NCBI GenBank assembly: GCA_049315825.1
Contig: JBMOJK010000003.1
Span: 20,652-52,651 of the forward strand
DNA length: 32,000 bases
Direction of reading: 5' to 3'
DNA from: Patescibacteria group bacterium
GTDB taxonomy: Bacteria; Patescibacteriota; Gracilibacteria; BD1-5; UBA2023
The position numbers and the translations under genes were made by a program. This document shows, in pieces, positions 7,315 through 30,700 of this stretch; the first letter of the stretch is position 1; each line of letters opens with the position of its first letter. The notes below the pieces were generated by a model. That model ran no database searches. It was not told the DNA's origin and saw nothing but the letters and a program-made list of their open reading frames with translations.

Positions 7315-7343
7315 TTGCGTTTATGGGTATGATTTGTTATATT
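7315..7343 (+). promoter_or_regulatory. promoter candidate (-35 TTGCGT, 17-nt spacer, extended -10 TGtTATATT)
   Basis: Read directly. The -10 ends 28 nt upstream of ATG 7371. Confidence 0.4.
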
Positions 7344-7370
7344 TTTTGTGGTTCTATCTCTTTTCTCCAT

Positions 7371-7721
7371 ATGAATACGCTTATTGAAGTAAACACTCGA
7401 ACTGCTAACGACGTGATGATTTTTGAGTTCACAGGTGAGCTCGACGAAACAAATGCAGACAAGACATTCACTTCCATCTACAACGCTATTCCTGATTTCA
7501 CTGGGAAGAAGGTTCTCTTCAACCTCGTAGGACTCAAATACCTCAACTCAAAGTCGATCGGATACATCGCTGACATTTTTCAGAACATCGAAGACGGTAA
7601 CGGAAAAATGGTGATCTCTAATATGACCGAAGAAGTAAAGGATACTCTTGAGCTCGTTGGTATCACAACGATCATCCAGATCGCTGAGACCGAAGATGAA
7701 GGAGTTGCCATGATGGCATAA
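7371..7721 (+). CDS. STAS-domain protein (anti-sigma-factor antagonist, SpoIIAA-like)
   Basis: 116-aa ORF from internal ATG 7371 of track ORF 7269-7721. The pattern ...FEFTGELD...VLFNLVGLKYLNSKSIGYI...GKMVISNM...V...LELVGI is typical of the STAS fold. Confidence 0.65.
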   Translation: MNTLIEVNTRTANDVMIFEFTGELDETNADKTFTSIYNAIPDFTGKKVLFNLVGLKYLNSKSIGYIADIFQNIEDGNGKMVISNMTEEVKDTLELVGITTIIQIAETEDEGVAMMA

Positions 7722-7736
7722 ATTGTCAATACAATT

Positions 7737-7762
7737 AAACCGCTCAAATAGGGCGGTTTTTT
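7737..7762 (+). terminator. rho-independent terminator
   Basis: AAACCGC...GCGGTTT stem followed by TTTTTT, 16 nt after stop 7721. Confidence 0.65.
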
Positions 7763-7810
7763 GATTTCTAAAAAGACTTATGAGAAGATGAAAGAAATCA
7801 ACACCTATCT

Positions 7811-13274: not shown

Positions 13275-16200
13275 ATGATACTCACTCCATCCTCCTATGG
13301 AGAGCAACCTGACGGTTCGATTGTTGATAGATTTGGGAATGTTATGTCACTCGAAGAGCGACTGAAGATTATCGAGACGGTAGAAGGTCTTCCGGCAACT
13401 AGCAAGAAGGATGATATTATGAATATCGTCAACAACAACCCAATCACCATCGTTATCGGCGAAACAGGAAGCGGGAAAACCACCCAAGTTGGTAAGTGGT
13501 TTTTTGATGACAAGAAAAAAACGGTTATCACCCAGCCTCGTGTGCTTGCTGCGATGAGCAACTCTCATCGTGTATCGGATGAAATGCTTGCGATGACATG
13601 AGATCCGTATTACTCCATTGGAGATGGTGTTGGGTATCGTACTGGAAAATGAGTAAGTTCACTTCATGCTTCACCACTTTCATTTCATACAGATGGAGTA
13701 GAGCTCATGCGTCAAGTGATCTCAAAGATTGTCCCGGATCTACTCATACTCGATGAAGTGCATAATTTCGCACTTCCTACCGAGATATTAGCCATGACTC
13801 AACGCCTCGCAATGCTTCTCAAGCAAAAACGAGAAAGCAAGATTGTAATCATGTCAGCGACGCTTGATCCAGTGATTTTCCAAGAATACTTCAAAGACGT
13901 ATCCACCGATATCCCTGTTGTACAAATCCCGGGGCGCACATTCCCCGTTGAGAAGTATTTTAACAAACGTGACGGGTACATCAGCTCAATCGTTACTCAA
14001 AATACCCAAGGGAACAATGTCCTTGTCTTCGAACCAGGAAAAAAAGAAATCGAACAAGATCATACCACGCTCACCAAACATTTTGCTGCAGATCAGAAAT
14101 ACACTGAAATGTCACACACGATGGGATGGAAGGAACCAATCATCCACGAACTACATGCTGACCTTCCAAAAGAAGATCAAAAAGGCATTACACAAGCCAA
14201 GCAAGATCAGCCCGATGTAACTCTTGCAACCAATGTAGCGGAGGAAAGTATCACAATCGAGCGAATCAACACAGTAGTCGATCTTGGTGAGCATAAAGTG
14301 GTCGACTACAGTAATATGGGCATCCCTGCACTTCGAACACGAAATGCATCGAAAGCAAACTGCCTCCAGCGAGCAGGTCGTGCAGGACGTGTGCGCCCGG
14401 GGACATATATTCGAGTCAATGACACTCCATACGAAGATCTTCCGGACTATCCAGAGGCACCGATGGAAAAGGAAATGCTCGACAAATACATCCTCATCAT
14501 GCTCGAACATGGCGTTGATATCCTCAAGATGGATGATGAAGCTCGTATCGAAGGGAAACAGCTCTTTTTTCATGAATTCGATCGAAAGCTCGTAAACATC
14601 TCGCTCTATCGACTGCACAGCATCGGAGCGATTGATCGAGAACGTAAAATCACAGCGCTCGGTCGTGATCTCATCAAACTTCCACTTGATGTCTACAATG
14701 CACGTGTGCTTTACGAAGGAATCAAGCTCGAATGTGCTGAAGATATGATGTATGCTGCAGCTATTCTTGAGAAAAAAGGATTCGTCTCGAAGAACGGAGC
14801 CTGGAAAGAACTCAAACTCGCTGATCAAGATGAGTCTGACGTACTTGCATTCGTAGATCTTTTTAAGATTATCTCCGCAAGAACCCTCAACAAAGATCAG
14901 ATTCACAAACTCAAGCAGCTCGGTGTGTCTACAGAGGATATTGCTCTATTTCAGGCGCACGATGGAAAATATCGTCTGTTTGAAGTGGTGGATCTCACGG
15001 ATTTTGGCATCAAGACGAAACGAGTAAAAGAGATCAGTGACCTCGTAGAAGATCTCGCTCGCAGACTGACGGATTCCAAGATCGAACTCAAGCCATCAGG
15101 CAATCTCTTTAATAAGAAAGTTGCCCTTGTTACCGGAAGTCTTCATGACGTATATCGCTACGATGGGGATTCTAAAACACTCATAAATACTACTCATAAG
15201 ACTTCGAAGAATCGTCTCGAATTCATCGCTGGTGATATCAGTCTGATCGAAGTTACTCCCAAGAGTATGTATGTAGGACAGCCATTTATCATCGGCGGAA
15301 AGAAGAACCCAGAGACCGGACTCATGTCACCCGACCTTAATCTTGTGACATTCTTAACCGCAGTAGACAGTGGACATATCAAAAGTGCGGTCGAGAGCAC
15401 ACAAAAGCATCTTGCAAAGTTGGCAACGAGCACATGAATCACAAACATCGCACATACCACACCTTCTTCCCAGCCACATTCAATTGTCCAGACTGAAGTA
15501 GCAAAAGGCACGCCAATACGAGAACATGCCCCGGGTACGAGTGATCAGGTAGACCAATTATGAGCACCAGAATCGGGAAATATACCAAGCATTAAAGAAC
15601 TTGAACGCGAAGCTCCAAGTCTCTTCGCGGAAATCTGAAAAGATGTAACTCGGGATACACTTTCTATTGAGAAGGCCATTGCTCACTACGCTGCTGCAAT
15701 GGAAAATGTGAAACTTGAAGAATCACACGTATTTGAGACGCAGGATACTGTGACAAACTACTATCTCAAACACTGCCTCCCTGATTTTCTCATCGGTCAT
15801 AACGAATCAATCCGAAAATTCTTGAGCACAAAAGATCCTGAGTATATCTTCAATTTTCGTGAGCTCCTTGCTCGATTCCTGCTTGATTCCGAGTCATACC
15901 GTATCTCAAAGCAGAGCATCGAGAAAACCGAGAAGAGCTTTCGTCATGATACGAGTATCATGAGTCGGTTCCTCGAGTCTGACAATCCGTTCATCAAGCA
16001 GTTCATCCGAACAGGAAAGGTGCACCTCCCAGCACAGCATACACAAGAACTTCTTCTTCCGCTCACGAGTCATGTTGAGAGTGCAAGTGGGAATGCAACT
16101 CTTACGCTTCAGAAAATCGAATATGCAAAACTTCTCGGTCAGCTGGGACGCGAAAAACGAAACATCGATCTGCAGGACTACAAATCACGCATAACTCGAA

Positions 16201-17048
16201 ACTACATCAGAGGTCTTTCAGATACCTCAGAAGCCTACTGCAACATTGCAGCAATCCATCGTCAGCTCTCTTTTAAAGAAAATAGCGATCTTCAAGTAAT
16301 CACGAAGTCGCTGAAATGAATCGATCGTAAGAAAGGTGCACTTCGAAAATGCCAAAAGCTTCGAGGGTATAAGCTCAATATCCTCGATCATCTTCGTCAG
16401 CTACAAAATTGAGAAAAATGTGACATCGAACTTCTCGAATGACATGCGTTTTCGAAAGAAACTTCTACACGGTTTGTTACAAAATATCTCCCAACGCTCC
16501 GCTATATGCAGTCGGATGACGTGCGTCAGATTACCCGCGGAAAGCGTGCACTTGAAGACTATATCATTCACTTCAAAAGTGAGATAGAAGCACTCGACAC
16601 TATGATCAACGCACTCGTCGATGAAACGGATATTCAACATATTCCAGCAGCTCGGGACATGAAGCGAGCCATCGAGAAGCTCTGCACTGAATTCTTTGAT
16701 ACGGAATACTATCGTCTCATGGTAGCACCTGAGATATTTGGACTTGTTCGAGAATTATTCCGAGACAAACTCGATCGCAATCGAGGCTGCGATGAAATTC
16801 TTGCTCAATTTCTCGAATCAAAAAGCTTTTCGCACAGCAAAGAATACAAGAGCATCTTCCGTGATCTCGAAGCATATACTGACACTCTCTACGTACTTGA
16901 ATCTTACTCAGGCACCATTGCTCAAGAGGTTCGAGAATCTCACGATGAATCCCTCATCAAATCTCGCATCAACGAGCTCAAGGCACATATCACACTCCTC
17001 AAAGCACAAAAGCAAACGATTAGTGAGAATCCCCTACTCCAAGTATAG
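13275..17048 (+). CDS. DEAH/RHA-family ATP-dependent helicase (HrpA-like) with a long uncharacterised C-terminal extension (1257 aa)
   Basis: Track ORFs 13275-13601, 13707-15437, 15699-16319 and 16506-17048 are all in frame 0 with no TAA/TAG between them. They join through eight TGAs (13599, 13650, 15435, 15561, 15636, 16317, 16410, 16440). Motifs: GETGSGKTTQ, DEVH, SAT, QRAGRAGR and an HA2-like LGAID...LPLD. Stop TAG 17046-17048. Confidence 0.8.
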
Positions 17049-17054
17049 ATTCAC

Positions 17055-17088
17055 ATGAAAAAAGACCGACAAATCGGTCTTTTTTCAT
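17055..17088 (+). terminator. rho-independent terminator
   Basis: Perfect 15-bp stem ATGAAAAAAGACCGA / TCGGTCTTTTTTCAT with a CAAA loop, 7 nt after the helicase stop. Confidence 0.8.
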
Positions 17089-17092
17089 GTAT

Positions 17093-17155: not shown

Positions 17156-17527
17156 ATGGAAGAATCCCTCAAAGAGCAGTATCGCTCAGATATGCTCTCC
17201 GGCATTCAACGTGAAGCGCACAAAGAACTCCAAGATCTCATGCGAATCATCGTACGCAGACATGTACATGAACCAACAGGTTCACAAGATATTTATAAGC
17301 TTTTCTCACAGGTCTTCGACGATGTGTTTCGCGATATTTACGACAAGAAAGTTGATCTTAAGCGCAAAACTCGCCACATGCTCGAAATGCTCTCCATCTC
17401 ACACAATCACAAACCACACGAAGAGCGCATGAAGCTCTATGAAGACATTATTGAAAATAAGACCTACTATCAACGAAAGAAAAAGCCAGAAAACCCTGAA
17501 TTAGAGAAAGAAACTTCGAATTCGTAG
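17156..17527 (+). CDS. hypothetical charged/helical protein (123 aa)
   Basis: Intact ORF ending TAG. No family recognised. Confidence 0.5.
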   Translation: MEESLKEQYRSDMLSGIQREAHKELQDLMRIIVRRHVHEPTGSQDIYKLFSQVFDDVFRDIYDKKVDLKRKTRHMLEMLSISHNHKPHEERMKLYEDIIENKTYYQRKKKPENPELEKETSNS

Positions 17528-17624: not shown

Positions 17625-20051
17625 ATGCAGAGCGCAATGCATATATCTACACCATTCCCACCTCGGCCATTCTCACTTCGCGAGACTGCTCTTGAGCTCT
17701 TCGAAGAAGCCCAGTTCAAAAAACGCGGATCGCGTTTTGAGAAATTCAAATCCGATTGGAAACGAGATTCCAAGAAACGTCTTGTTCTCGGACTTACTCT
17801 CGCAGGCTGAGCTATCATCGCAACAGCTACTGGTGCTACTGCGATTGCAGGAGCGATGCTCGCAACCCGTGCAGCCGTTGGAGCGATTGGTGGTTTTCTG
17901 ACAACAGAGGCTCTGTTTGATATCGGGAAATCAAAACTCTCACAAAGTCAGATCACTCAACTACTCAACACTATCGAACGAGCTAATGACTTCAACGAAG
18001 TCCTCAAAACTATTGCTGAAATCGAACAATCCTATGCTTCGGAACATCTAGAATCTGCTTTTCGAGAAGCTCAACGAAAAAAGGTGCGATTCGAAGCTGT
18101 AAAAAAGATATCTGCCGTAACGGTTGCTGCGGTACTCGGAGTGCTGGGTGGATCACACGCAGCAGAAGCTGCAACTGAGTCGGTTTCTCAAAGTGCAACT
18201 CCTATCGTTCCTGTTCCTACTTCTACCTCTGTTTCAGCGAATTTACCTCCTATTGCACCTCACAATCCACCTCCTTCCATGAAAGATATTTTCGCGGATA
18301 TTCGACACGATCATCCAACACAGCGATATGTCACACTCGAACAAAGCATCAGACGTATCGAAGGACTTAAACAAGGGATTGCTCTCGAAGAAAGTGAGAA
18401 ACTCACCACTCTCAACAACGAGATTTCCCGGCTCGTCCATAATCCGAACGGCCACATCGCAACGATAATCGATGAACTTGGATATCGTTCACCAGGAGAA
18501 ACCATAGATCAGGCTGCTCGCAAACTTCAGGAAAAGGATCTTCAAGAAATCCTTGAAAAATACATCGAACAAACCACTCCTACAGCAACACCCACACCCA
18601 CTGACATTATATCCCCAGTTGCACTTCAAAGCACACCTGCATCAAACTCAACAATCGAACTCGACTCCGCAAGACTCACAACAGAAACACCTCAGGATGA
18701 TCTAGAACAAAAAGGCTGGTACCACCATGCATTTGGAAAGATACTCATCGGATGAACTGCCTTATTGAGTGCCTTTGGTATCGGAAGAATGAGTAAAAAA
18801 GACGATACGACTACAGTAACACCAACACAAGAAACTACGACAAATCCCGTAGTGATTCCCCCGATAGTCGAAGAGCCCTCAGAGTCCACGGTAAACACCG
18901 TAGCTCAGCCTCCAGTGACACAGGCTGCTGAAAATGATGCTGCTCAAAATATCGTCGATGACACCCTGCAAACAACCTCAGTACATAATAATACAACCGA
19001 GCATGAACATGCAGCAAATGAGCCTGAAGAAATCTCTATAGAGCAACACGTGCGTGATCTCATGAATACTGGAAAGCACTATCAATGGCTCCTTGATCGC
19101 GAGAAAACACGGGCCAGTAGTGAAAAAGCACATGTATGCTTTAGAGCACCAACGCTTTGAGGGGAGTTTGAGATGAGATTCGAGATCACACACACATCGT
19201 ATCATTTTGCGGTCATCTGGCACGAAGCAGGCATTGGAAGGCATCATGTAGACTCTGGAAAAATAGAATCCTCAACAATCCCACGCGACCTCACAGAGCG
19301 ATCAGTATTCCTACAAGAACTCATCGAAAAGTACTTCTTCGAGATCCTCGACTATCGCGAAGAACAAAAGACGATGGAAATGCGAAGTCTCCATACGGTC
19401 GAGATCACCAAACAAGATCTCAAAGCCATCTACCAGCAACTCGAGCATCCAGAGACCGTAGCACTTGACCATGAGACGGGTGGTTGGTGGTACATGGATA
19501 GTTATCGACTGCACAACGGGAAAATACGGATGATAAATTTGCACAATCCCCCATATGAGCTCATTGATGCATCACCAGTAATATTCAAGGTGAAGTCAAC
19601 CGAGACTGGAATGAAGTACGACCATGTTAGAGAGGTAGACTATATGAAAGCAAACTACTCACACATAGAGACGAAGTGGATGATCGAAAGAAGAGAAGAG
19701 GACTTAGAAGTAACTCCTCGTGCATGGTTCAAAACTGGTATGGTCAGTGGATTTAACTGGCATAAGCATTGCTCAGAAACCCTTCGTCATCCAAGTGGAG
19801 GAGATATCAATGATCCAGCATGTGCAACTCTTGCATTTAATAAATCGAATGTTCAAGCTCATACTTGGGCCATCCTCACTCCGCTCACAGATCCTCACTT
19901 CAGACCAGAATCTCATCAGGTCATCCTGGGGGAACCATGACAACGACGATACGTACTCAGTTATTGGGCACTCAATCGAAATCCACAAAACATTCACGGT
20001 CGATATACCCACCGAGATCTTCGAAAGATCAACGTAGAGGTGGTCGATTAA
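17625..20051 (+). CDS. large membrane protein (808 aa under code 25) with a C-terminal JAMM/MPN+-like domain
   Basis: Track ORFs 17625-17810, 17856-18755, 18765-19160 and 19173-19940 are all in frame 0. They join through TGAs 17808, 18753, 19158 and 19938 and end at TAA 20049-20051. Gly/Ala-rich TM segments surround the first two TGAs. The C-terminal part has ETGGWW (19473-) and HKHCSETLRHPSGGD (19761-19805). An SD-like GAGGGGAG plus ATG 19173 directly follows TGA 19158, so a separate 255-292-aa product cannot be excluded. Confidence 0.55.
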
Positions 20052-20054
20052 TCC

Positions 20055-20122
20055 CCGGCACTTTATGTGCCGGAGGGAGGGTGCTGCGCTATCACTCTCC
20101 CTCCGGTGCAGAAATGCACCGG
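20055..20122 (+). promoter_or_regulatory. three overlapping GC-rich hairpins (structured RNA, complex terminator or leader)
   Basis: H1: CCGGCAC (20055-61) / GTGCCGG (20067-73). H2: CCGGAGGGAG (20070-79) / CTCCCTCCGG (20097-106). H3: CCGGTGCA (20103-10) / TGCACCGG (20115-22). H2 shares its CCGG ends with H1 and H3, so the structures are mutually exclusive. No T-tail follows. Confidence 0.5.
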
Positions 20123-20156
20123 AAGTTCATTAACACTCTCGAAGAAAGGATTTTCC

Positions 20157-20663
20157 ATGCACTCTTTTTGGACTTTGTTTAAAGCAGATTTTCTGGCGGA
20201 GACACTGTCCATGGTGCTCTTTTCTGGAAAACATCCGAGATTTATTGCATTCATATTTCTCTTGTTTGTAGGGATCTATTATGTGATTCGTACATGCCTG
20301 AGGATTTGCATCTTTGTTATCTGTTTACCATTTCGTACGAAACATGCTCGGATCAAACACTCGCTCAATACAACTACTCGCGTAGCTCGTAAATTCGGGG
20401 ATGTTTGTTCTCGTATTAGCTCACACGAGAAGTATCTTCAGATTCAAATAACGGGAGAAAATTGGTCCAATCAGATCAATCACATCCTCTATCGAGTCAA
20501 CAAAGATACTGGTTTGCTTCAGATTTTCATATATCGAAATCATGATTCACTTCAGCTGGATTATGCATTTTTGTTGCATCATGCCGGCCTTCCGTACGGT
20601 TGTGAACTCACTCATGAGTCACTCCCCTTGATCCACCAAAAAATTCGCACCAATCTACTCTAG
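20157..20663 (+). CDS. hypothetical membrane protein (168 aa)
   Basis: ATG 20157 lies inside track ORF 20067-20663, with GAAAGGA 6 nt upstream. Hydrophobic segments include FIAFIFLLFVGIYYVI and ICIFVICL. Stop TAG. Confidence 0.5.
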   Translation: MHSFWTLFKADFLAETLSMVLFSGKHPRFIAFIFLLFVGIYYVIRTCLRICIFVICLPFRTKHARIKHSLNTTTRVARKFGDVCSRISSHEKYLQIQITGENWSNQINHILYRVNKDTGLLQIFIYRNHDSLQLDYAFLLHHAGLPYGCELTHESLPLIHQKIRTNLL

Positions 20664-20671
20664 GGGTTATT

Positions 20672-20917
20672 ATGAAAGCGTTTATTTCTCTTGTTCTCGT
20701 TGGTGGACTTGTTGGCTGCAGTTCTACTCCAGCATACAATCCACCTATTCAAAAACCTATTACTACCATCGAATCTGTACCAGCCCCCAGCAGACCAACA
20801 CCCCCCAATAAATTCGATCTCGAAAAACGCAAAAAACGTCTCGAGCTCATCCGCAAAGCAACGGAGAGATCATGAAAAAGTATATTATTTGGATTTTATG
20901 CTTCATGCCTCTGTTAA
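20672..20917 (+). CDS. small lipoprotein
   Basis: Signal peptide with lipobox LVGC (MKAFISLVLVGGLVGCSS). Track ORF ends at TGA 20873-20875, which forms an ATGA overlap with the next gene. Under code 25 it reads on 14 codons to TAA 20915-20917. Confidence 0.55.
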
Positions 20918-21432
20918 GTTTTGCAGAGGTAGCTGGAGATGTAAAAGCCTTGAAACTACAACTTCAATCAATAAATCAAGAGCGGAAACTCGCTCGCGAT
21001 AAGGCGAATAGAATCTTTGCAGAATATGAGAAGGGCGAAGTGGATGAAGATGAGATCGATCACGAATATCAGGCTATTGAGAGTCAAATTACCGCTCTCA
21101 ATGGCCAGAAACAAGATATCGAAAATCGTATTAGAAATCTTGAGGTCACAGAAGCACAAAAGCCCCTGACACATCCAGTTCCAAAGCCCAAAGAAGTTAC
21201 CAAAGAATCTACCCCGCCACCTTCTGGCGGACTCGCTTCTTATGGCGGTAATTTTGTTGCTGATGGCTTACTTTTAGTAGGTCGTATAGTTATCTTCACC
21301 ATTGCTTTTGTAGTGATACTTTTTTGTATCGGACTCGCTATTGAGATTCGAGACAAAAACAAAGTATCTTCTATAGAAAAAATTGAATTATCTGGCAAAC
21401 ACAGTGGTCGAGTCCCCGATCATCTACTCTAG
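20872..21432 (+). CDS. secreted/membrane coiled-coil protein with C-terminal TM anchor (186 aa)
   Basis: N-terminal signal peptide (IIWILCFMPLLSFA), heptad-like charged region, Pro-rich linker and C-terminal TM (IVIFTIAFVVILFCIGLAI). GGAGAG lies upstream of the ATG. Confidence 0.6.
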   Translation: MKKYIIWILCFMPLLSFAEVAGDVKALKLQLQSINQERKLARDKANRIFAEYEKGEVDEDEIDHEYQAIESQITALNGQKQDIENRIRNLEVTEAQKPLTHPVPKPKEVTKESTPPPSGGLASYGGNFVADGLLLVGRIVIFTIAFVVILFCIGLAIEIRDKNKVSSIEKIELSGKHSGRVPDHLL

Positions 21433-21443
21433 AAAGGACTATC

Positions 21444-21905
21444 ATGCCTCGTGATACAAACGCCCTACCGAATTGGGTGAAAAAAAATCCGGAAAAGTAC
21501 AGCAAGCGACTTCAGTACGAAGCAGCTATGCTCTACAAACAATTCCCGTTTCTTGGCTTTTTCATGAAAGGAGATTCACTACGGATAGAAGGACCTGTAA
21601 TGTCGGCAAGTCTCAATGTGTATCAGATTCGTGTAGTTTACGAAGCTGAATATCCAGCGAGACCGCCAAGCGCCTTTATCATTGATAAAGATATATCAGA
21701 GTTTTGTAGTAAAGATGGAAACCGTGGTCACAATTTCCATAACTACGGAATGGAAGCCAATGGTCTCGGACTCTGCCTCATGGCTCAAGATGAATGGAGC
21801 CCTCAACGTTCTGGTATTTCAGTAGTTGAATATGCAATTGCTTGGGTCAATGCATATGAATTTAAGCGTATGCGTGGATACTGGCCATTGCGCGAAACAA
21901 AGTAG
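21444..21905 (+). CDS. ubiquitin-conjugating enzyme (UBC/E2)-like protein
   Basis: AAAGGA SD. VVYEAEYPARPPSAFI resembles the E2 YPfxPPxvxF motif. HNFHNYGMEANGLGLCLMAQDEWSP resembles the E2 HPN...G.ICLdiL...WSP active site, with candidate catalytic Cys111 (TGC 21774-21776). Confidence 0.6.
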   Translation: MPRDTNALPNWVKKNPEKYSKRLQYEAAMLYKQFPFLGFFMKGDSLRIEGPVMSASLNVYQIRVVYEAEYPARPPSAFIIDKDISEFCSKDGNRGHNFHNYGMEANGLGLCLMAQDEWSPQRSGISVVEYAIAWVNAYEFKRMRGYWPLRETK

Positions 21906-21943
21906 TTTTTCATATATCTCAATACAATACAAGGAGCAATATC

Positions 21944-22186
21944 ATGGGTAGCACAACTAGAACTGAATACAAAATCCCAGGAATGGGTGACGTAGGTACG
22001 CCTGGAAACAGACGTCCAATTAATATTTCAGCACTCGATGCAGCCTTCAAGGATTATCGAGAAGGCGACGGTGTTGTTATGGATCCACGTGGTGTCATTC
22101 ATGGTGGAAATTCTCGCCCTGCTCAAGAACTCATTAATAATAGTGAGTCAGTAGCAATACTCATGGATGAACCTACTACAATGTAG
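21944..22186 (+). CDS. 80-aa protein between E2 and E1 (candidate ubiquitin-like modifier precursor or substrate)
   Basis: AAGGAG SD 8 nt upstream. Double stop TAGTAG. Internal ...GVIHGG (GG = 22103-22108, residues 54-55) is followed by a 25-aa tail. There is no C-terminal GG. Confidence 0.55.
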   Translation: MGSTTRTEYKIPGMGDVGTPGNRRPINISALDAAFKDYREGDGVVMDPRGVIHGGNSRPAQELINNSESVAILMDEPTTM

Positions 22187-22225
22187 TAGTCCACATTCTC
22201 GAATAAAGACAAGGAGAAATACATA

Positions 22226-23092
22226 ATGGATACTGCAGACTGCAAAACAGGAAGTGGTTTTCGTAATCTAAATCATCTCGAAAACCACTTCCACTCCCCC
22301 AATCCACGTCGCGATGCGCTCATTCCTCCTTTGCGGGGAAAGCGGGTCGTGGTGGTGGGGTTGGGTGGTGGTGCACCGATACCGATTGAGCTTTTGAAGT
22401 GTGGTGTGGATGCGTTTGATCTTGTGGATTTCGATATTCTCGAGCCCCACAATGCCATCCGTCATCCATGCCCGGCAAAATACTTCGGTCGCCCAAAGGT
22501 CGAAGCAGTTGCTGAGTTTATGCGAGAACTCGCCGGATCACAGGTGGAGATCAACCCACATGTGATCGATGTATTCAAACATCACGACACCCTGAAAGAT
22601 CTCATCAACAATGCAGACCTCCTCATCGTTGCAACTGACAGCGAAGCTTCGCGGTTTTTTCTCAATGAAATCGCCGTCGAAACCAAAACCCCCGCTGTCT
22701 ACGTTGGAATGTACGAAAACGGTTCTGGCGGAGAAATTTTCGCTGCTATGCCCGGACAGGCATGCTATGCATGCCTGTCTCACTACAACCAGCGTGAAAC
22801 CTTCATGCAACAATACCGAACTGCCACCCGCAAGGGCGACTGCAGTTCAAATCGCGATACCCTGGCTATGCCAGGCTTGGGTATCGATCAGGGCATGCTC
22901 GCCCTCATTGCGGCACGCAAGTCCGTGGAAATCCTTCTTCGTGGAGTGCAACACTCCCTTCCTCCAGCCGGAGGAAACTGGATCGTGTTCTCGATTTTCG
23001 GTATCACCAAAATACTCGAATCTCCGCTTACATGCTTCCAGGGCGACCTCGCGCAACATTCCAAATGCTTTGCGTGCGGCGATCCGTACTAA
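22226..23092 (+). CDS. ThiF/MoeB/E1-like adenylyltransferase
   Basis: AAGGAG SD. Rossmann nucleotide loop VVVVGLGGGAPIP, DLVDFDILEPHNAIRH (the E1/ThiF DxDxxxxSNLxRQ region), and paired CxxC motifs (CYAC, CFAC). 288 aa. G+C is visibly higher than in the neighbours. Confidence 0.8.
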   Translation: MDTADCKTGSGFRNLNHLENHFHSPNPRRDALIPPLRGKRVVVVGLGGGAPIPIELLKCGVDAFDLVDFDILEPHNAIRHPCPAKYFGRPKVEAVAEFMRELAGSQVEINPHVIDVFKHHDTLKDLINNADLLIVATDSEASRFFLNEIAVETKTPAVYVGMYENGSGGEIFAAMPGQACYACLSHYNQRETFMQQYRTATRKGDCSSNRDTLAMPGLGIDQGMLALIAARKSVEILLRGVQHSLPPAGGNWIVFSIFGITKILESPLTCFQGDLAQHSKCFACGDPY

Positions 23093-23311: not shown

Positions 23312-24040
23312 CTACCCCTTAAACACCCGCTTCATATATTCAATCGCCCTTGCTTGATCGATGAAAAATGGACTACTCGCAATCGTGATACACGAAACTT
23401 GTCGTGCAAAATGCAGGATCACTTCCTTTTTGAGTTCGAAATCTATATCGTCAAGATCTTCGCTAAAGAAATCCAGATCCAGATTGAGGATAGAGTTCTT
23501 CGAGATGATTTTTCCACGTTCACGAAGCAAATCCCCTTCTCACTCGATCCGTATCATCTCACCAATAATCCCCTCTTGCATCGCAGGTTTGATATAGTTC
23601 CCCACATTGCAGAATTTATTGGTGAATTCGAAGGCCTTCACGAGATCGAGCGAATCAGGTTTGGAAAATGTATGAACATTTTCCCAAAGATCAGAATGTT
23701 CATCGATATGAACAAGTGTCGCCCCATCTTGAATAATCTCTAACTGACGAGCTTCATACCAGAAATACAGCGCGTGATTATGGTTATCGAAGATCGTGAC
23801 TGGGATGTTATTCCAGGTGGTTCGGACGAAATGTTTGAGACCCTTTGCCTCGATGAGCTTCCCATCGTCTTCTGCAACAAAGACGAGCTCATTTCACATC
23901 TCTACATCATCAAAAGTCCCATCGATGATACTCGGGATTGTGAGTATTCCTTGCCAATTTGCAGGTGCTAGAGCACGATTTCAAACCGGCTGATCGAGGG
24001 TATGAACAATGTTATACACGCTCAGTACTGAAGAGTTCAT
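23312..24040 (-). CDS. UPF0489-like (arginase/deacetylase-fold) hypothetical protein
   Basis: Track ORF 23312-23530 extends 5' in frame through TGAs (TCA at 23540, 23894, 23981) to the first ATG after an in-frame TAA (24056-58), giving ATG 24040. It overlaps the gmk 3' end by 29 nt. The motifs VTIFDNHNHALYFW, LVHIDEHSDLW and LNLDLDFF resemble UPF0489. The family call is tentative. Confidence 0.5.
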
Positions 24041-24713: not shown

Positions 24714-27700
24714 TTATTCTACAACGATTTCCTTCCCTGCACTTCGTCCGAAGACTTCTGAGTTTGAGAACTCGAAGGCCCGTGATGGACGAACGGAGTA
24801 TGTTCCAGCATGGGTCATGCGGATCGTGTAAGCAAATCCGTAGTCACCACTGCCGAGAGTGTTAGCAGTTGCGAAGTAGCGATCATCACGGTACTCTTCG
24901 TGATCGAAGATGGATGTACTGTATCCTGTATCGACGGTCTTTGTATCAGATTGAATCTGACCTGTGAGCTCGTTGACACTCGGGATATTCACCGCACTTG
25001 TTACAACCGCTTCCTTGGTCTCAGTGGCAAGTTTCGTGTTTACGAGTTCTGCACCAGATGGGATAAATCCTTCGAATGCAGGCTGTTTACGGGCTTCACT
25101 CGTGATGAGTCGAGTATACGCAAATACCAGATCTCCTACCTTAAATTTCGACTGCGGAGTGAGGTAGTTGACGATATCTTTTGGATATTTGAGCGCTGAA
25201 TATTCGATGTCACCAGCGATGTATTTCTTCCATTCATCAGACTTGAGTGCTTCTACTCGCTTGTACTCTGAGAGAAGATAGTACTGGGTATCTACATAGA
25301 ATCCTTCATCTCGTGCCAGGATATCCTTGGTAGGAAGCGTGTACGAGAGGGTGATATCGTAGTAGAGCGACCCCTTCCCCGTTTTGTCGAAGACAAATGT
25401 AGAATTCTTTGGAAGGTCTCGAACGAGAACAGATTTTGAGAATGTTGTAAATCGATCCGCTCCCGCGATTTTTTGTTCTGCGAGGAGATTCTCGTCTGAC
25501 TTGATGCGAGCAACCATGTCTACATCTTTGAGTTCACCTGTCTTTGTGAGATACACACTCAGTGATCGGATGATTGACGCGGTTTCATTTGGTGATCCGT
25601 ATCCTCCGTCGGCTTTCTTGGATCCAAGAAGGAATCGATTCATATTATCGATCACAGATGCGATATCCTTGAATTGATCACGGCCAAGCAGTGATACTAC
25701 TTCAACAAATGCTGCAGTATTCTCGATGCGTGAATACTCGCCATATCCACCAACGAATGCACCTCGTGGATTTACGACCACATCGTTCTTGAGAATGGTA
25801 TCAATGCGTGATTTTGCATCAGCGAGGAGGGTCTTACGATCGCTTTCTGGGAGATCTTTTTGATCTGCGAGAGCGGCGATAGTTCGAAGATAGATGAAGA
25901 CATCCGATGGAGAGAATAATTTCGTATCTACGAGTTTGAACATCTTACGAGATTCAGTATCGGTTGGCTGAAGTTTGAGAATAGCTTCGATTGCCTCGAG
26001 ACGTGCACCTTCTGAATACTTGCAGTCGTAGAATTCATTTGGAGTACAGCCTTCGGTTTTCCCTATATAGAAGCGCTCTCGCAGATACTTCACTGCCTGA
26101 GACTCCACACCTGAATCCACTGGGAATCCAAGCATCTTGAGTTCACCGATCGTACGCACCACATAGGCGGTGAGTGCAAAATCCGGAGACTCTCGTGGTG
26201 TATCGTTCCAGTAGGTAAACCCTCCGTTGTTCCTCTGGAATTGTCCGATCGTTGCGAGGTAATCCTGGATGGCATCTTTGAGTGGCACTTTGATGTATCC
26301 AGTCTGTGCATCGATGTATTTATCGAGCATGATCTGAGAGAGATCAAATGGTTCACCCATCGAGTCGTAAAGCTTCTTCATCTCGATATTTGGCACGAGC
26401 GTGTAGGTTCGATTCCATGACGAAGCGTATGGATATTCTCGAAGGTATTCCATGCCGTTCTTGAGACCGCTCAGTGCAGATGCACCATAGTTAATCTGAA
26501 CAAGGGATTCTGGGTTCATTCCTTCAAGCTGAATTCGCTCATCCGCTGAGACACCTGATGTCTTCCCTGCTGTAGAAGTCTGCTCTGGGGTAGATGACGG
26601 ATAAATCGGAAGTGTTGCTTCGATCACATCTTCGTTTCCATCTGCGTCCGTTGCCTTGAAGGTGATCTTCGAAGCAAATGCAGGTTTTACTTCTGGATTT
26701 GAATGCGGAGTCATCTTGAATCGTACGACCGTAGATTCGCCATTCTTAACTCGCATCTTGATCGCAGATCCATCCATGTCGGCATTGTCCGCTGACGCAC
26801 TTACCGTGATATCTACATCCTTGCCAGTCTTGTTGAAGATACTTGGTGCGAGGACGACTTTATCACCTGATATGAGGAATCTTGGAAGATTTTCTGAGAT
26901 GAGGAGTGCTTTGGTAGTCATGATCGATGCTCGACCTACTCCGACCTTGTTGCCCACTGGAGTGGATACGACTGATTCGATCACCCATGTTGTGAGATTG
27001 TCTGGGAGTTTGTCGGTCGAGATTTTTGCTTCACCGTTTGCATCGGTATTGAAGTCAGATTTCCAGAAAGCAGTATCCTTGAATGTTCCGCGCTTTTTCT
27101 TGGCATCACCTCCCTTCTGTCCATCACCGGCTCCACCCTTTTCACCGTTTCCAGTGTTCTTCACTTCGAGCTTTTCGATGAGGTTCGTGAGTGAGAGATA
27201 CGTGCGAGTTCCGAGGTATCGCTTCATATCATAGAAGAATGCGAATGGATTCTTCTGAGGATTTCCCATGAGTGCGAGAACACTTTCATCGACGATCGAG
27301 AGTGATCCGTTCGCATTTGCGACTGGCTTTCCTTCTGAGTCTTTTACTCGGACTGTCACCTCAACTGGATCAGCTGGGAGATAGCGAGTCTTCGATGGAA
27401 CAACTTCTACGGAGAGTTTTTTCTCATCAGAGACCACCTTGATCACCGCGAGTGCTCGCTTGTAAACTGGGAGGTCCATCTTTTCATCCTGTCCGATGAG
27501 ATAGACTTTGACGTAAATATTTGGGATGAAACTTGTTTGGATCGGAAGCTCGATCTTTTCTGAATATCCTGTGATATCTTTCACGTACGAGTCGATCACT
27601 GCGTCGTCCTTCTCGATAGAAACAAAGTATTTACCAGACTTCACTGGAGACTTGAGTGTGAATACTGCAGTATCTCCTGGCTTAAGAATACTCTTTTCGG

Positions 27701-30700
27701 CTACAAGATCCGTGAGTGAATTGTTTCCGTTATTCCATGTGAGATATCGATCAGACTCGACGTAGATCGTGCGAGATGAGGTGAATGTATTCCCATTTGA
27801 ACCTGTATAGTTCGCACGAATTTCGTATTCTCCGTCTGAAGCAGTCTGGAATATTGCCTGGAATTCTCCGCTGTCATTAGACTTTACGGCGATTTCTTTT
27901 TCTTTCTTTTCTTCGAGAGAGTAGTCATCGTAGAAGATACCATCCACTCCTTGCTTCTTGGCCACCTTCCACTCACGGTGGATCACCTCGATCGTACCTC
28001 TGGCACTCGCCTTTGGTATTGCATCATGTGTGAGGATCACTCCTTCCACTCGGATATCGGTGTTCTTTGGATACGAATATCCTGTGCGAAGTCCGATGTA
28101 TCCGTCAGTCGTGTGAAGCACTTCAGAATATGAGTTCGTCACCGTCTTTGAAGTATCTGGATCTTTTACCTCTACGTTGTAGGTGTAGATTTTCTCACCG
28201 TTTAGAGTTGTTGGAGATTTTGGATCAAATGCTTCTTTTGGATAATCAAACCCGATGTTTCATTTTCCATTTTCGTCGATCTTTCCATCGCCTGTTGTGA
28301 TAGTTGTATCAGCGAAATTACACTGTCCCCAATACTGACAATCAAAATACTCGTATCCGCGTCCGAACTGGTATTCGTTGTATTTTTTTGCATCGAAGAA
28401 ATAACTCTGAGCGAGTACTCCATAGTGGAATGTTGTATTTACCATATTTCCACCGAAGTAGTATTCACTTCCGATATTGATGCGAGTCGAATCACCGATG
28501 AGATGATCCTTTTTATCAGATGAGAGATTGACCCTGAAGACCGGTTTTTTGTAAGCCTCTACATAGAACGAAGCATCGTTGTAGATATACGCATATCCGA
28601 GTTCGTCCGTCCCCATATAGGCATATGCATTCCCACCCTTGAGGTAAAGTGCAAATGTGTACATCCCCATTTGTCCATCAGCTGGGATCGTGAAATTCCC
28701 GTGGAAATTCGAGTTCGCATCGAGGGTAATAGGAACTTCCTTGAAGAGTGATCCGTCTTGCTTGAGGAGCTTGATTTTGCCGGTTGTGTTCTTGGATTTC
28801 GTGTAACCAGTCGGCTCGAAAGTTCGTAGGAGACCCTTGAATTCTACAGTATCACCTGGACGATAGATCGGTCGGTCTGTATAGATATAGGCAAAGTCCT
28901 TCGTATCTGAAGTCTGACCTGCGATATAGCCGAAGTCGTAGTTACTCACTTCGTCATTGGTGGTAGTGATCACGCCATAGTTCCCGTCTTTCTGAGCAAT
29001 GATGATCTCAGGAACGACAGAGAGTTCGTAGAGCTTTTTGGATGCAAGATAGTTCACCTTGAAACCTGGTGCAGGTGCGATTTTACCATCTGTGTTCGTC
29101 GAATATCCTTCGATGGTTGCTCCTTCGATGATCTGTTTACCGTCCATCGAAGTGAGTAAAAGTTCGTTTTTGTTCTTACCTGATTCGAGCGCAAGCGCGA
29201 GCGTAGAACGCACGAAAACATTGAGTGATTCGCGTCAGTCTTTGCGATATCCTGAGTATCCTTGGTTGTATTTTCCGTTCACAGTCGATCGAACGAGGAT
29301 GAATGGCGAAGTGAATACATGCCCCATTACATCCTTTTCAAGATCGAATCGGTTATTCGCGATCGCCCATGCCTTGTTGGCAACTGGGAGGGATTTTGCG
29401 ACTCTTGAACCCTGACAAACTGGTTTATAGTTTGCATTTTGTCGATCCTTAAGGTAGCTTGCGTATTCTTCTTTGGTCATTTCACATACCTCAACATCGA
29501 GCTGAGAAAGGTTGATCGTTTGGAAATTTACAACGAGCGGAACATTAGCCGGAATCACGCTCACATCCTTGGATGATGGAGAATATGCGTAGCGGTCTCC
29601 ATCGGTCACATCGCCTGCCTTGATGTCTTTCTTCTCATAATTGGCTACAAGAGGATTTCCAACTGCATCAAGAAGTGTAGACTTGGTGTGAAGCGTATAT
29701 GTTTCATGCGGATTGAATCGTGTACCGATAACATAGGCGATTTTTCCTGGGATATCCTTACAAAGTTTTACAACTTTTGAATTCCCAGTTACTTCGTCAT
29801 ACTGCTGTATTCCATCCTTTACAACTGATCGGATCGGAGATTTTGGTTCTGTCTCGAAATGCTTCTCGAGCCCGTATGTGCCATAGTCACCAAAGGCAAG
29901 CAGGTTCGTAAAATACATACATCCCTGCGTATTAGAAACATACGTGAAATCACTCGCCTCGAACTTTGGAAATGTCTTGAGTTCCCGAGATACATTTTCG
30001 CGAAGATGCGGATTGGATGCTTGATCGATCGTGAGTGTATAGGTTACACCGTAGTCGAGCGAATCTGGAAGTTCACACTTGATTCGACGCTTATCATCCT
30101 GAGCCTTAGTCGTCATTTTTCCTCCAATAAACTCGCTCGTTTCGTATTTCATGTACGAAGTCTTGCACTCGATACGTGCACCACTCTTCGCAAGATATGG
30201 CTTTGTTTTAGCAAGATCTACGTCCTCACCAAAATTCAACACGAGAAATCCGTCTTTCTTTGCGATAAATATCTCAGATGTCGAATTCGAGTTATAAATC
30301 TCAGGCGTGTCTTTCAGAGCACCCGTTTCTGAATACTCATTTCGATATGACTGCACATTCTGAAGATAGTCCGAAGAACGCATAGCAAACGAAGTCGCAC
30401 CTGTGTAAGCAATATTTCCTTCTGCTGGCATGAGTGCACCAGAGAGTGCTACGTTATATCCAGTAGAATAGAGAAGTCCTGGCGAAGCGTTTTTAGTGAT
30501 GGTAAATCTTCGACCTACATCACTTGGTCCTGATGTAGTTGCGACAGTAACTGCGATCTCTTTTTGACTTTCCTGTACCTTCACGATTTTAGCGAGATCT
30601 GCGGTTTTTACTGGCGCATTGAACTCGAGTGGGATACCGTTTTCAGGAGAAAATCCATCCCCCTTTCCGATCACTTCAAGATTTGGGGTCTTGAAACTCA

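Follow-up and report, generated by a model that had tools for sequence, protein, structure and literature searches.

Described ubiquitination-like systems and the present locus

Operons in which E1, E2 and JAB enzymes occur without a ubiquitin-like protein are already known as families 6a-6c (PMC1779556). In type II CBASS, the tail of the CD-NTase is a substrate of Cap2, an enzyme that has also been reported as ATG7-related (bioRxiv 10.1101/2022.03.31.486616). The Serratia E2-CBASS enzyme SmE2, whose conserved cysteine is named C101, cuts a C-terminal GFP fusion off its partner cyclase, the C-terminal glycine of which is conserved (PMC12948482). The 6A-MBL systems (family 6a) join an E2-E1-JAB triple fusion to a metallo-β-lactamase (MBL), the Bil systems (BilABCD, family 6d) have a separate E2, JAB and E1, and the Bub systems (family 6e / DUF6527) consist of component fusions (Ubl-E2, JAB-E1) with a JAB that processes the precursor and a BubE serine protease.

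We analysed a window of 32,000 nucleotides from a Patescibacteria genome, in which sequence and structure comparison confirms predicted E1, E2 and JAB-type enzymes of ubiquitin-type conjugation, set among membrane proteins and conserved in code-25 Patescibacteria. The initial annotation had described an E1/E2/JAB cassette tied to envelope proteins and belonging to no described system type, a view supported here by HMM, structure and gene-neighbourhood evidence. Neither a CD-NTase nor a β-grasp protein, a BubE or an MBL was found. With its membrane proteins, its conservation and no recognisable ubiquitin-like protein, the block appears to be a hitherto undescribed variant of bacterial ubiquitination-like systems with a predicted function. 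We consider it likely that the block from 17625 to 23092, probably extending from 17156, is a single conserved module that combines a ubiquitin-type conjugation cascade with a membrane complex. All seven genes claimed earlier lie on the + strand at or near the positions given, but the cassette starts farther upstream than 19173, at 17625 and probably at 17156, and a strong terminator at 17053-17090 parts the helicase gene from it. The features are as follows.

17156..17527, + strand: 123-aa predicted helical protein, possible first module gene, after the terminator
17625..20051, + strand: 808-aa polytopic membrane protein with C-terminal JAB, an ORF with four in-frame TGA (Gly) codons
From 18285, + strand: conserved domain of ~200 aa in the 808-aa protein, predicted extracellular (DIFADIRHDHP…VTLEQ…RRIEGL)
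About 19380-20051, + strand: predicted JAMM/JAB (MPN+) metallopeptidase domain, C-terminal ~220 aa of the 808-aa protein
19470-19490, 19755-19775 and 19791-19811, + strand: JAB motif sites Glu616, HKH and PSGGD
20157..20663, + strand: 168-aa membrane protein, hydrophobic N-terminal region and ~100-aa soluble C-terminal domain (hydropathy)
20672..20917, + strand: 81-aa lipoprotein, lipobox LVGC, basic C-terminal helix (hydropathy)
20872..21432, + strand: 186-aa tail protein with signal peptide, extracytoplasmic coiled coil, membrane anchor and cytoplasmic tail (hydropathy)
21400-21429, + strand: tail-protein C-terminus HSG(179)RVPDHLL
21444..21905, + strand: 153-aa UBC-like E2, E2-CBASS family (PADLOC, Pfam, PDB profile)
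21774-21776, + strand: candidate catalytic Cys111 of the E2
21944..22186, + strand: 80-aa conserved accessory protein, motif G-[TS]-P-G-N-R-[RN], always directly 3' of the E2
22226..23092, + strand: 288-aa E1, single-domain ThiF-type adenylation domain (Pfam, PADLOC, PDB)
22358-22375, 22427-22465 and 22631-22645, + strand: E1 motifs GLGGGA, DxDxxxxxNxxR and ATD
22763-22774 and 23066-23077, + strand: two CxxC pairs of the E1
22835-22849, + strand: invariant E1 loop K-x-D-C-S-S with Cys206

The longest ORF grows from 1182 to 2322 aa once TGA is counted as sense, and in alignments with orthologues TGA stands opposite GGN 25 times, TGA 10 times and TGG never; TGA is therefore read as Gly, which bears out the proposed code 25 and not code 4. 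The 123-aa protein has orthologues at the equivalent position in two related loci (L001, 90% identity; L005, 64%) and a relative in L009 (1.4e-9), with no significant Pfam match (best E-value 0.18). The Shine-Dalgarno motifs and short spacers reported for the last three genes were also seen, with AAAGGA 5' of the E2, AAGGAG 5' of both the 80-aa ORF and the E1, and spacers of 11, 38 and 39 nt.

The separation of E1 and E2, put forward as a distinguishing trait, is not one, since the Bil systems share it (PMC11601596), together with a separate JAB and the logic of a conjugation cascade. Unlike Bil, the module has an E1 of one domain (270-290 aa), a JAB fused to a membrane protein and no detectable ubiquitin-like protein. 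The fusions and precursor-processing JAB of Bub can be counted as a likeness, and the BubCD JAB domain is among the Foldseek matches of the module JAB; however, catalytic cysteines are missing from the E1 and E2 of Bub, which act via oxyesters, whereas both candidate cysteines are conserved in the module, in which no BubE or DUF6527 was found. Three enzymatic domains and the lack of a ubiquitin-like protein are shared with 6A-MBL, although in the module these domains lie on three proteins, with membrane components and no MBL. A further parallel is offered by ATG7/ATG3/ATG10 with ATG8/ATG12 (non-canonical homodimeric E1, E2-recruiting accessory N-terminal region, membrane-directed output), and we also count as a likeness that ATG8 is made with an extension past its C-terminal Gly; in the module, however, no β-grasp modifier is found, and the resemblance is indirect, drawn via Cap2.

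Predicted enzymes and membrane proteins

The E2-like identity proposed for 21444-21905 holds, as the protein matches the PADLOC E2 model PDLC00877 (9e-11) and has a precomputed Pfam match to PF26395 (E2-CBASS), and the profile of its family finds SmE2 (8hsb_B, E 0.005) as the best PDB match, over nearly the full length. In this profile alignment Cys111 pairs with the conserved SmE2 Cys101, and six lineages keep the cysteine, the H..H..G and the YP motif unchanged. The ThiF/E1-like gene at 22226-23092 was likewise correctly assigned and is intact, with significant matches to Pfam ThiF (7.6e-26; 91 bits, cut-off 28) and the PADLOC E1-E2 model (2.5e-28). A further likeness to 6A-MBL is its match to the cap2_3 model at 3.4e-17, but with 62 bits against a cut-off of 320. 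The E1 motifs are unchanged across the aligned lineages.

The JAMM domain had been placed at 19173-20051. These positions are no separate gene but the C-terminal part of the ORF at 17625-20051, and the suggested fusion to a long membrane protein is upheld by this single frame of 808 aa across four TGA codons. According to a topology predicted from hydropathy and Lys/Arg counts, the N-terminal part would form a glycine-zipper membrane hairpin and then a third membrane helix, and between the ~200-aa domain and the JAB domain would come a fourth, weaker membrane helix, then a linker rich in Thr and Pro and a β-rich domain; the cytoplasmic placement of the JAB depends on this fourth helix, which is weak by hydropathy. 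Orthologues of the 808-aa protein show 69% (L001) and 41% (L005) identity, and when 1.84 billion representative proteins were searched exhaustively with HMMER, only 41 relatives came up, several of which are 720-906 aa long and share the C-terminal domain.

The JAB motif E…HxH…SxxD is present, the family consensus being NWHKHPx6PSxxD (HxHx7SxxD), and the metal-binding motif of the window lineage is one residue longer than this consensus. From its own sequence the window JAB gave no Pfam match above threshold; Pfam Prok-JAB is matched by two of ten family members (E 0.007), and the best PDB match of the family profile is the Cap3 chain 9ild_A, at the JAB motif (E 0.067). The AF2 model of an orthologue with 52% identity (P0003, 20-sequence alignment) reached a pLDDT of 91 and a pTM of 0.88, and its best 50 Foldseek matches in the PDB are all JAMM/MPN domains, among them BRCC36 (2.5e-6), the Caldiarchaeum Rpn11 homologue, AMSH/Sst2, CSN5, BubCD and Cap3. 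The motif and the orthologue's modelled fold together confirm the predicted JAMM/JAB domain.

Hydropathy agrees with the three membrane or secreted proteins described initially, given the hydrophobic N-terminal region of the first, the LVGC lipobox of the second, and the signal peptide and membrane anchor of the third. The 168-aa protein, which matched no Pfam or PADLOC family, has orthologues in L001 (88%) and L005 (55%) that share its C-terminus …IHQKIRTNLL identically, and relatives in L010 (6e-15) and L011 (4e-8). The final 14 codons of the lipoprotein gene lie past an in-frame TGA and overlap the tail-protein gene. Short lipoproteins also stand directly 5' of the tail protein in L001, L005, L007, L009 and L018, although beyond L001 and L005 the lipoprotein HMM matches are weak (L009, E 0.0045; L018, 0.0062; L007, 0.32).

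Conservation, candidate modifiers and alternative readings

Eleven loci were compared, namely the window and ten further loci with a member of the JAB-membrane protein family (L001, L005, L007, L008, L009, L010, L011, L018, L019 and L020). The E2, the small protein and the long-tailed membrane protein adjoin the JAB-membrane protein in the window and eight other loci (9/11), the small module lying directly 3' of the E2 in all nine, and an E1 does so in nine of the ten loci, window included, whose contigs are long enough. Since the same set recurs in eight other loci with an altered order in six (three gene orders overall), this grouping goes beyond chance, and the co-conservation of the E1 and E2 genes holds; the linkage is not absolute, as L008 and L020 have the JAB-membrane protein without an adjacent E2. 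The loci belong to divergent genomes that use code 25, including at least one with a Gracilibacteria annotation.

In the eight other loci, the counterparts of the tail protein bear tails 24-194 aa long, of low complexity by eye. In all nine loci these tails finish in [SD]-G-[RKME]-[VI]-[PSHT], with the conserved Gly always 5-11 residues before the end; the L018 tail has three further residues after the motif. A scan of 1592 six-frame ORFs from the 11 loci picked out the tail gene only; as the regular expression was built from the very sequences scanned, only its specificity is informative. The Gly with its short extension resembles ubiquitin-like precursors as well as the Gly-containing C-terminus of the E2-CBASS cyclase (CdnG). 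The CD-NTase tail used by Cap2 and the partner cyclase of SmE2 offer precedents. We tentatively regard this apparently disordered tail as the best candidate for the activated C-terminus, as modifier or substrate, though the odds are somewhat against it; because the window protein finishes in Leu-Leu and not in Gly, such a role needs an inferred processing step.

The tail protein is preferred, as we infer, over the 80-aa ORF, first described as a small GG-containing ORF. The gene is real, but a modifier role is doubtful, as its product shares homology with the first ~75 aa of the L005 E1 (50% over 46 aa) and its HGG is limited to the window and L001. Another homologue is fused to the E1 N-terminus in L001, and free relatives occur in L007, L009, L010, L011, L018 and L019, of which those of L007, L009 and L018 carry a C-terminal membrane helix; no Pfam, PADLOC, NCBIfam or PDB match was obtained. 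There is about an even chance that this protein is an adaptor linking E1 and E2, a role analogous to that of the linker in Cap2 or the N-terminal domain of ATG7. Should it instead be a ubiquitin-like modifier, the JAB would cleave its precursor behind a conserved Gly, and the E1 would then activate it. The module is always present and always beside the E2, with a free N-terminus and a variable continuation (nothing, a membrane helix or the E1), which is the pattern of ubiquitin-like precursors and of the JAB-cleaved BubAB fusion, and the Gly of DPRG is kept in seven of eight aligned modules, the E1-fused L001 copy having Asn. Yet the order of conserved segments in these 55-70 aa is unlike a β-grasp by eye, the C-terminus is [ST]-[FM] and not Gly, and no ubiquitin-like family is matched in Pfam or the PDB; moreover, the region past the Gly is itself conserved and so appears to be a folded part, not a disposable extension. 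We therefore consider a modifier role for the 80-aa protein unlikely.

That the module is a type II CBASS-like antiviral system in degenerate or divergent form, with a split Cap2, a Cap3 fused to a membrane protein, membrane-protein effectors and a cyclase located elsewhere or lost, appears quite improbable, in spite of clear likenesses to type II CBASS (Cap2/Cap3) and the E2-only E2-CBASS (family 6b, Iyer et al. 2006). The E2 family and its cysteine are shared, the E1 is one adenylation domain best matched by Cap2-type models, a JAB peptidase is present without a β-grasp modifier, the order E2, small module, E1 parallels the Cap2 domains E2, linker, E1, and next to the module lies a variable region, which holds an HrpA-like helicase in the window and different genes in L001 and L005. 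However, the CBASS models are matched at modest scores (40 bits for the E2), the small module has no detectable Cap2 similarity, and, in line with the initial annotation, no module protein searched matches a CD-NTase or known effector model. In contrast to CBASS, the E2 and E1 are on separate genes with a small extra module in between, the JAB, instead of being a free Cap3, forms the C-terminus of a polytopic membrane protein of 800-900 aa, a lipoprotein and a bitopic membrane protein are included, and in the window, L001 and L005 the module occupies one fixed chromosomal position between housekeeping genes of a CPR lineage rather than a place in a mobile defence island; no relatives were found in phage, plasmid or viral collections. 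It is far less probable still that the ThiF-like gene encodes a conventional MoeB/ThiF activator of sulfur carriers and stands beside E2-like and JAB-like genes by coincidence. Its closest solved structures by sequence are indeed MoeB (2.4e-9), ThiF and UBA5, and ThiF is its top NCBIfam match, but that match scores 64 bits against a cut-off of 275, all other equivalogs are also far under their cut-offs, no ThiS or MoaD gene occurs in the window or any related locus, and across nine loci of varied gene order the E1 is conserved together with the E2 and JAB proteins.

Proposed mechanism and biological role

In the cascade that we propose for the conserved module, the E1, which like MoeB, Uba5 and Cap2 is probably homodimeric, would adenylate a C-terminal carboxylate; by analogy with CBASS, this would belong to a partner protein with a conserved C-terminal tail. 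The acyl group may then move to Cys206 in the E1 loop and next to Cys111 of the E2, from which a target amine would receive it. The JAB domain, predicted to be cytoplasmic, may trim the precursor, reverse the conjugate or do both. The biological role of such a system in these Patescibacteria may lie in transmembrane signalling or an envelope function, or in antiviral defence.

Genetic code, gene models and surroundings of the module

Translation with table 11 splits the module region into fragments, many of which merge when TGA is read as sense, and the longest ORF in the window then grows from 1182 to 2322 aa. When codons are aligned with those of the orthologues in two related genomes, TGA stands opposite GGN 25 times, opposite TGA 10 times and opposite TGG not once; since TGA faces GGN and never TGG, the code is 25 (TGA as Gly) and not 4. 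The gene models in this code, for a module that ends at 23092 and begins at 17625, or probably at 17156, are listed below.

Code-25 ORFs of the module
17156-17527, +, gene of 123 aa
17625-20051, +, 808-aa JAB-membrane protein, four TGA
20157-20663, +, 168-aa protein
20672-20917, +, 81-aa lipoprotein, one TGA
20872-21432, +, 186-aa tail protein
21444-21905, +, 153-aa E2
21944-22186, +, 80-aa small protein
22226-23092, +, 288-aa E1

The window comes from a 68.5-kb contig of a MAG that NCBI labels "Patescibacteria group bacterium" (locus tags ACOYN2_02070-02090). The NCBI annotation calls the E1 a ThiF family adenylyltransferase, in generic terms, and lists both the E2 and the 80-aa protein as hypothetical. 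The initial annotation ascribed strong Shine-Dalgarno sequences and 10-40-nt spacers to the last three genes, which agrees with their ribosome-binding sites of the AAGGAG/AAAGGA type and spacers of 11, 38 and 39 nt. The lipoprotein and tail-protein genes overlap at an ATGA (20872-20917) that would be a stop/start overlap under code 11; under code 25 its TGA is Gly, and the lipoprotein reads on for 14 residues, encoded across the signal-peptide codons of the tail protein. In L005, the related locus on OY970170.1, a genuine stop codon ends the lipoprotein at the corresponding position. Searches of the whole window for tRNAs and Rfam families gave no match.

Directly upstream lies the gene of an HrpA-like DEAH-box helicase (13275-17048, +; 1257 aa, eight in-frame TGA), whose first 538 aa match NCBIfam HrpA at 5.9e-52 and whose long C-terminal extension has no match; it is closed by a terminator with a 17-bp stem at 17053-17090. 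The helicase was considered as a part of the module and rejected, as it is absent from L005 and from L001, a related locus in a Logan assembly, and is followed by this strong terminator. Both loci hold unrelated small opposite-strand genes at its orthologous position, which we therefore regard as a variable spot directly upstream of the module. Downstream, the gene of a UPF0489 (PF12640) protein (23312-24040, -; three in-frame TGA) is convergent with the E1 gene and keeps its position in L005, and beyond it lies the gene of a giant protein of about 2294 aa (24714-31598, -; two in-frame TGA), the L005 orthologue of which has the α2-macroglobulin-type domains MG2, A2M_BRD and bMG10. L005 has a Peptidase_C39_2 gene between its guanylate kinase and α2-macroglobulin-like genes, and the window has none there. 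Positions 535-4024 and 6249-9511 are ordinary chromosomal context, with two ABC exporter genes, a FemAB-like protein (recognized by eye) and a secreted cell-wall hydrolase, whose L005 orthologue has a glucosaminidase domain and a C-terminus read as NlpC/P60-like.

Three enzyme families in conserved linkage with membrane proteins

The module joins members of three enzyme families to a set of membrane proteins, and this linkage is conserved. The product of 21444-21905 was at first called UBC/E2-like by its motifs, a call upheld by PF26395 (E2-CBASS), recorded in precomputed Pfam for the window protein and its relatives, and by thirteen PADLOC E2 or E1-E2 models that match at E-values up to 0.018 (best 9e-11); the local Pfam copy, apparently without PF26395, gave no match. 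A six-lineage E2 profile has as its best PDB match, nearly full length, the Serratia E2-CBASS enzyme SmE2 (8hsb_B, E 0.005). Cys111 is invariant in the six lineages and aligned with Cys101 of SmE2, a conserved site in that enzyme (PMC12948482). These sequence comparisons support a UBC-like enzyme with Cys111 as its candidate thioester site. Viral contigs, phage records and plasmid records held no E2 relative, and a narrow-peptide-pattern scan of genome contigs with the E2 alignment, a weak guide to distribution, found OY970170.1 alone. In the related locus L018, the main E2 is directly preceded by a second, diverged E2-like gene (5703-6137), which has a YPEDYPYS motif, matches the E2 profile at E 1.5e-8 and could encode a UEV-like partner.

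The E1 (22226-23092) scores 91 bits against a cut-off of 28 with Pfam ThiF (7.6e-26) and keeps its nucleotide-binding motifs, in line with its first description as a ThiF/E1-like adenylyltransferase; its best PADLOC match is a CBASS E1-E2 model (2.5e-28), and the solved structures nearest to it by sequence are MoeB, ThiF and UBA5. It is built as one domain of 288 aa. Across the aligned lineages the motifs GLGGGA, DxDxxxxxNxxR and ATD are invariant or nearly so, and two CxxC pairs and a K-x-D-C-S-S loop are invariant. This invariant loop, in full K-x-D-C-S-S-x-R-D, lies 23 residues past the first CxxC, at a distance similar to that of the catalytic Cys of Uba5 past its own CxxC, and Cys206 of the E1 is a candidate thioester site. 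A ThiF/MoeB sulfur-carrier enzyme was considered and rejected: scores for the E1 lie far under the equivalog cut-offs, none of which is reached in NCBIfam (ThiF 64 bits vs 275), and no partner lies nearby, with no ThiS or MoaD domain in the module or the related loci. The 6A-MBL cap2_3 model gives the E1 62 bits vs a cut-off of 320.

The JAB domain is the C-terminal part (19380-20051) of the 808-aa protein. Searched alone, its window sequence had no significant match in Pfam, PADLOC, NCBIfam or PDB sequences; Pfam Prok-JAB matched 2/10 family members at E 0.007, below threshold, and the family profile weakly matched the Cap3 chain 9ild_A at the JAMM motif (E 0.067). Exhaustive HMMER searching of 1.84 billion representative proteins returned 41 relatives only, many of them 720-906 aa long with the JAB domain C-terminal. 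The Glu (of ETGG), HxH, Ser and Asp are invariant in all aligned family sequences that cover those positions, and the family consensus NWHKHPx6PSxxD after ETGG or EICG is the canonical JAMM motif (HxHx7SxxD), with canonical spacing in most members and one additional residue in the window, L001 and L005 (HKHCSETLRHPSGGD). For structure prediction the orthologue P0003, whose region is without TGA, stood in for the window protein, to which its domain is 52% identical; with a 20-sequence alignment drawn from the exhaustive search, AF2 reached pLDDT 91 and pTM 0.88, vs pLDDT 33 for a JAB-domain run with a 2-sequence alignment. In this model HxH ends a strand and SxxD opens the next helix, and the top 50 Foldseek matches in the PDB are all JAMM/MPN (the first 37 at probability 1.00), among them BRCC36, archaeal Rpn11, AMSH/Sst2, CSN5, BubCD and Cap3. 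Motif and predicted fold point to a real JAMM/JAB-family metallopeptidase domain. The initial annotation had this JAMM-like domain either fused to or abutting a long membrane protein; it is fused, lying C-terminal in the 808-aa ORF and in many of its relatives. A conserved T-L-G-G turn before the domain (19149-19169) was rejected as a cleavage site; it reads as a β-hairpin turn and has NG, AG or CG in relatives. By hydropathy and the positive-inside rule, the JAB domain and the tail of the tail protein are predicted to be cytoplasmic, the fourth membrane helix of the 808-aa protein being weak, and the roughly 200-aa conserved domain of that protein, the lipoprotein and the coiled coil are predicted to lie outside.

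Orthologous clusters in the same chromosomal neighbourhood were found in L001 (64-93% protein identity across the module) and in L005/L006 on OY970170.1, a 1.27-Mb MAG chromosome (28-66%). The shared neighbourhood comprises a 5'-3' exonuclease, a dUTPase and a CARDB-like protein on one flank and the UPF0489 protein, guanylate kinase and giant α2-macroglobulin-like protein on the other. More distant contigs with a JAB-membrane family member were translated with code 25 and searched with HMMs built in this analysis, and the following orders were seen.

Gene order in the window-type and related loci
Window type: JAB-membrane protein, 168-aa protein, lipoprotein, tail protein, E2, small protein, E1
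L007, L009, L018: lipoprotein, tail protein, E2, small protein, JAB-membrane protein, E1
L010, L011: 168-aa-like protein, E2, small protein, JAB-membrane protein, further membrane protein, E1; the tail protein precedes E2 in L011, and in L010 the membrane protein before E1 is the tail protein
L019 (short contig): tail protein, E2, small protein, JAB-membrane protein, contig end

E1 lies beside the JAB-membrane gene in 9/10 informative loci, and E2, the small protein and the tail protein lie next to it in 9/11 loci each. The exceptions are L008, with two JAB-membrane paralogues and no E1 or E2 within 10.8 kb, and L020, with an E1 and no E2 within the contig. Co-conservation of the cassette genes, on which its first interpretation depended, is borne out by this recurrence in three arrangements. 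All these loci need TGA read-through, and L007 is annotated as Candidatus Gracilibacteria. Word-based homologue searches gave 1, 2 and 1 matches, all close relatives. When metagenomes were scanned with the E1 alignment, L011 was the one true relative, and the other six matches were generic ThiF genes without E2 or JAB. A DUF4116 repeat protein of 630-730 aa follows E1 in L007 (11828-13729), L009 (11442-13763) and L020 (10090-12105) and is absent from the window. The two paralogues of L008 (854-3514 and 6669-10172) lie on a Logan SRR22388103 contig of 57% GC; one called protein there, P0009, is cut off by a TGA midway through the JAB motif, and as the motif continues through this codon as Gly, TGA appears to be Gly in this high-GC genome too.

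The small protein and the tail protein as partners of E1 and E2

The 80-aa ORF had been listed as a small GG-containing gene of the cassette. It is a genuine conserved gene; its internal HGG, considered as a diglycine processing site, is not conserved in relatives and was rejected, and a modifier role is unlikely. Relatives have in common the motif G-[TS]-P-G-N-R-[RN], a single Gly at a probable turn with a helix after it, and a C-terminal [ST]-[FM], and there was no significant match in Pfam, PADLOC, NCBIfam or the PDB. The L005 homologue is part of a 349-aa E1, of which it makes up the N-terminal ~75 aa (identity 50% over 46 aa), and L001 carries two copies, one free and the other diverged and fused to E1. 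Comparison of window positions 21944-23092 with L001 10493-11835 identifies the N-terminus of the window E1 (MDTADC…) as a remnant, the last few residues of a fused copy; the two window genes are in one frame, with two consecutive stop codons and 36 nt between them. L007, L009 and L018 encode the small module as a protein of its own that has a membrane helix at the C-terminus, and L010, L011 and L019 encode it as a free protein of about 86 aa.

Fusion to E1 and constant adjacency to E2 suggest that the 80-aa protein serves as an adaptor between these enzymes, a role for which we consider the chances evenly balanced. The linker of Cap2 and the N-terminal domain of ATG7 likewise link E1 and E2 (bioRxiv 10.1101/2022.03.31.486616), and the domain order of Cap2 (E2, linker, E1) is mirrored by the gene order of the module (E2, small module, E1); no sequence similarity between the small module and Cap2 linkers was detected. 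That the 80-aa protein is itself the ubiquitin-like modifier appears improbable.

The tail protein is a candidate for the species that is activated. Ubiquitin-like precursors are made with a conserved Gly followed by a short extension. Sequence similarity among the tail protein and its eight counterparts at other loci is low. In each of them a membrane anchor precedes a tail of 24-194 aa, of low complexity by eye, and the tail closes with the pattern [SD]-G-[RKME]-[VI]-[PSHT], in which the Gly lies 5-11 residues before the C-terminus.

C-terminal ends of the tail proteins
Window, L001: HSGRVPDHLL
L007: DGRVPVDLL
L009: DGRIPLELL
L010: DGRISDDLI
L011: DGRIPDEFT
L019: DGKIHMENIY
L018: DGMVPQDLVGKE
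L005: HSGEITNI

Among 1592 six-frame ORFs of 11 loci, the tail gene alone has this motif near its C-terminus, a count in which only the specificity is informative because the pattern was derived from the sequences tested. Cap2 of type II CBASS has as its substrate the C-terminus of the cyclase, which is disordered and conserved (bioRxiv 10.1101/2022.03.31.486616), and in E2-CBASS the E2 cleaves a C-terminal GFP fusion off its partner cyclase, whose C-terminal glycine is conserved (PMC12948482). The tail protein may be the species activated by E1, an idea that we hold tentatively and at less than an even chance, and Gly179 is its candidate processing site.

Relation to known systems and a proposed mechanism

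Five operon families with E1/E2/JAB components, 6a-6e, were defined by Iyer et al. (PMC1779556); the forms that have been studied are type II CBASS, Bil, Bub and 6A-MBL (PMC11601596). By E2 and E1 sequence the module is closest to the CBASS branch, with which it shares the apparent lack of a β-grasp modifier. Type II CBASS has a Cap2 E2-E1 fusion and a free Cap3, whereas the module has a JAB-membrane fusion and, as first noted, separate E2 and E1 genes, which is so in all loci. The first reading of the cassette as having no CD-NTase was also accurate, with no such cyclase in the module (Pfam on nine proteins, PADLOC on six) and none seen in the related loci. Bil (6d) has the β-grasp protein BilA and a multidomain E1 (IAD-AAD-CYS), in contrast to the single-domain E1 of the module, for which no BilA was found and in which no protein searched matched a ubiquitin-like family. 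Bub (6e) has BubE and a cysteine-less E1/E2, whereas the E2 cysteine and the E1 loop cysteine are conserved here and no module protein matched DUF6527 (BubE) in Pfam; the MBL and triple fusion of 6A-MBL are both missing from the module. By their defining tests the module is none of these four. What distinguishes it is that its JAB domain belongs to a large polytopic membrane protein, that a small module accompanies E1/E2, that it includes the tail protein and the lipoprotein, and that it is so far restricted to code-25 genomes. The searchable (incomplete) literature on Gracilibacteria, Absconditabacteria, CPR and Patescibacteria holds no description of such a system, and the initial view that the cassette fits no described type is sustained. 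The cassette itself is confirmed, and its interpretation as a conjugation cassette is supported with corrections.

The specific mechanism that we infer starts with adenylation of a C-terminal Gly by E1, which would form a thioester on Cys206 and pass the acyl group to Cys111 of E2; E2 would conjugate it to a target, and the JAB domain would expose the Gly, reverse the conjugation, or both. A tethered-modifier system, in which the modifier is the cytoplasmic tail of a bitopic envelope protein and not a free ubiquitin-like protein, is a proposal to which we give clearly less than an even chance. The JAB domain on the receptor-like 808-aa protein would then trim the tail past its invariant Gly, and the split Cap2-like E1/E2, with the 80-aa adaptor between them, would ligate the still membrane-anchored tail to a protein or possibly, by analogy with ATG8, a lipid. 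As for the role of the module, the fixed chromosomal position and the components predicted to face outwards lead us to favour envelope biology or signalling, and antiviral defence is a possible alternative because its enzymes are akin to those of CBASS and a variable region lies next to it.

The study of ubiquitination-like systems in bacteria (type II CBASS, Bil, Bub and 6A-MBL) is young. To our knowledge, the characterised examples are all soluble and for the most part mobile, and an antiphage function has been shown or proposed for most of them. The module would add an E1/E2/JAB system that is built into a membrane complex, has no recognisable modifier protein, and is chromosomally fixed in code-25 Patescibacteria, hosts of almost unknown cell biology. 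It offers testable candidates in the Gly179 processing site, the thioester sites at E2 Cys111 and E1 Cys206, and the 80-aa adaptor. If the tail is the modifier, the CBASS principle of using a partner's own C-terminus as the "ubiquitin" extends to membrane proteins, with a bearing on the origin of membrane-directed conjugation of the ATG7/ATG3 type. A tethered-modifier system, if true, would be an added branch of the Cap2 / ATG7-ATG3 lineage of conjugation enzymes and would let what happens at the surface of an episymbiotic CPR bacterium drive covalent modification within the cell.
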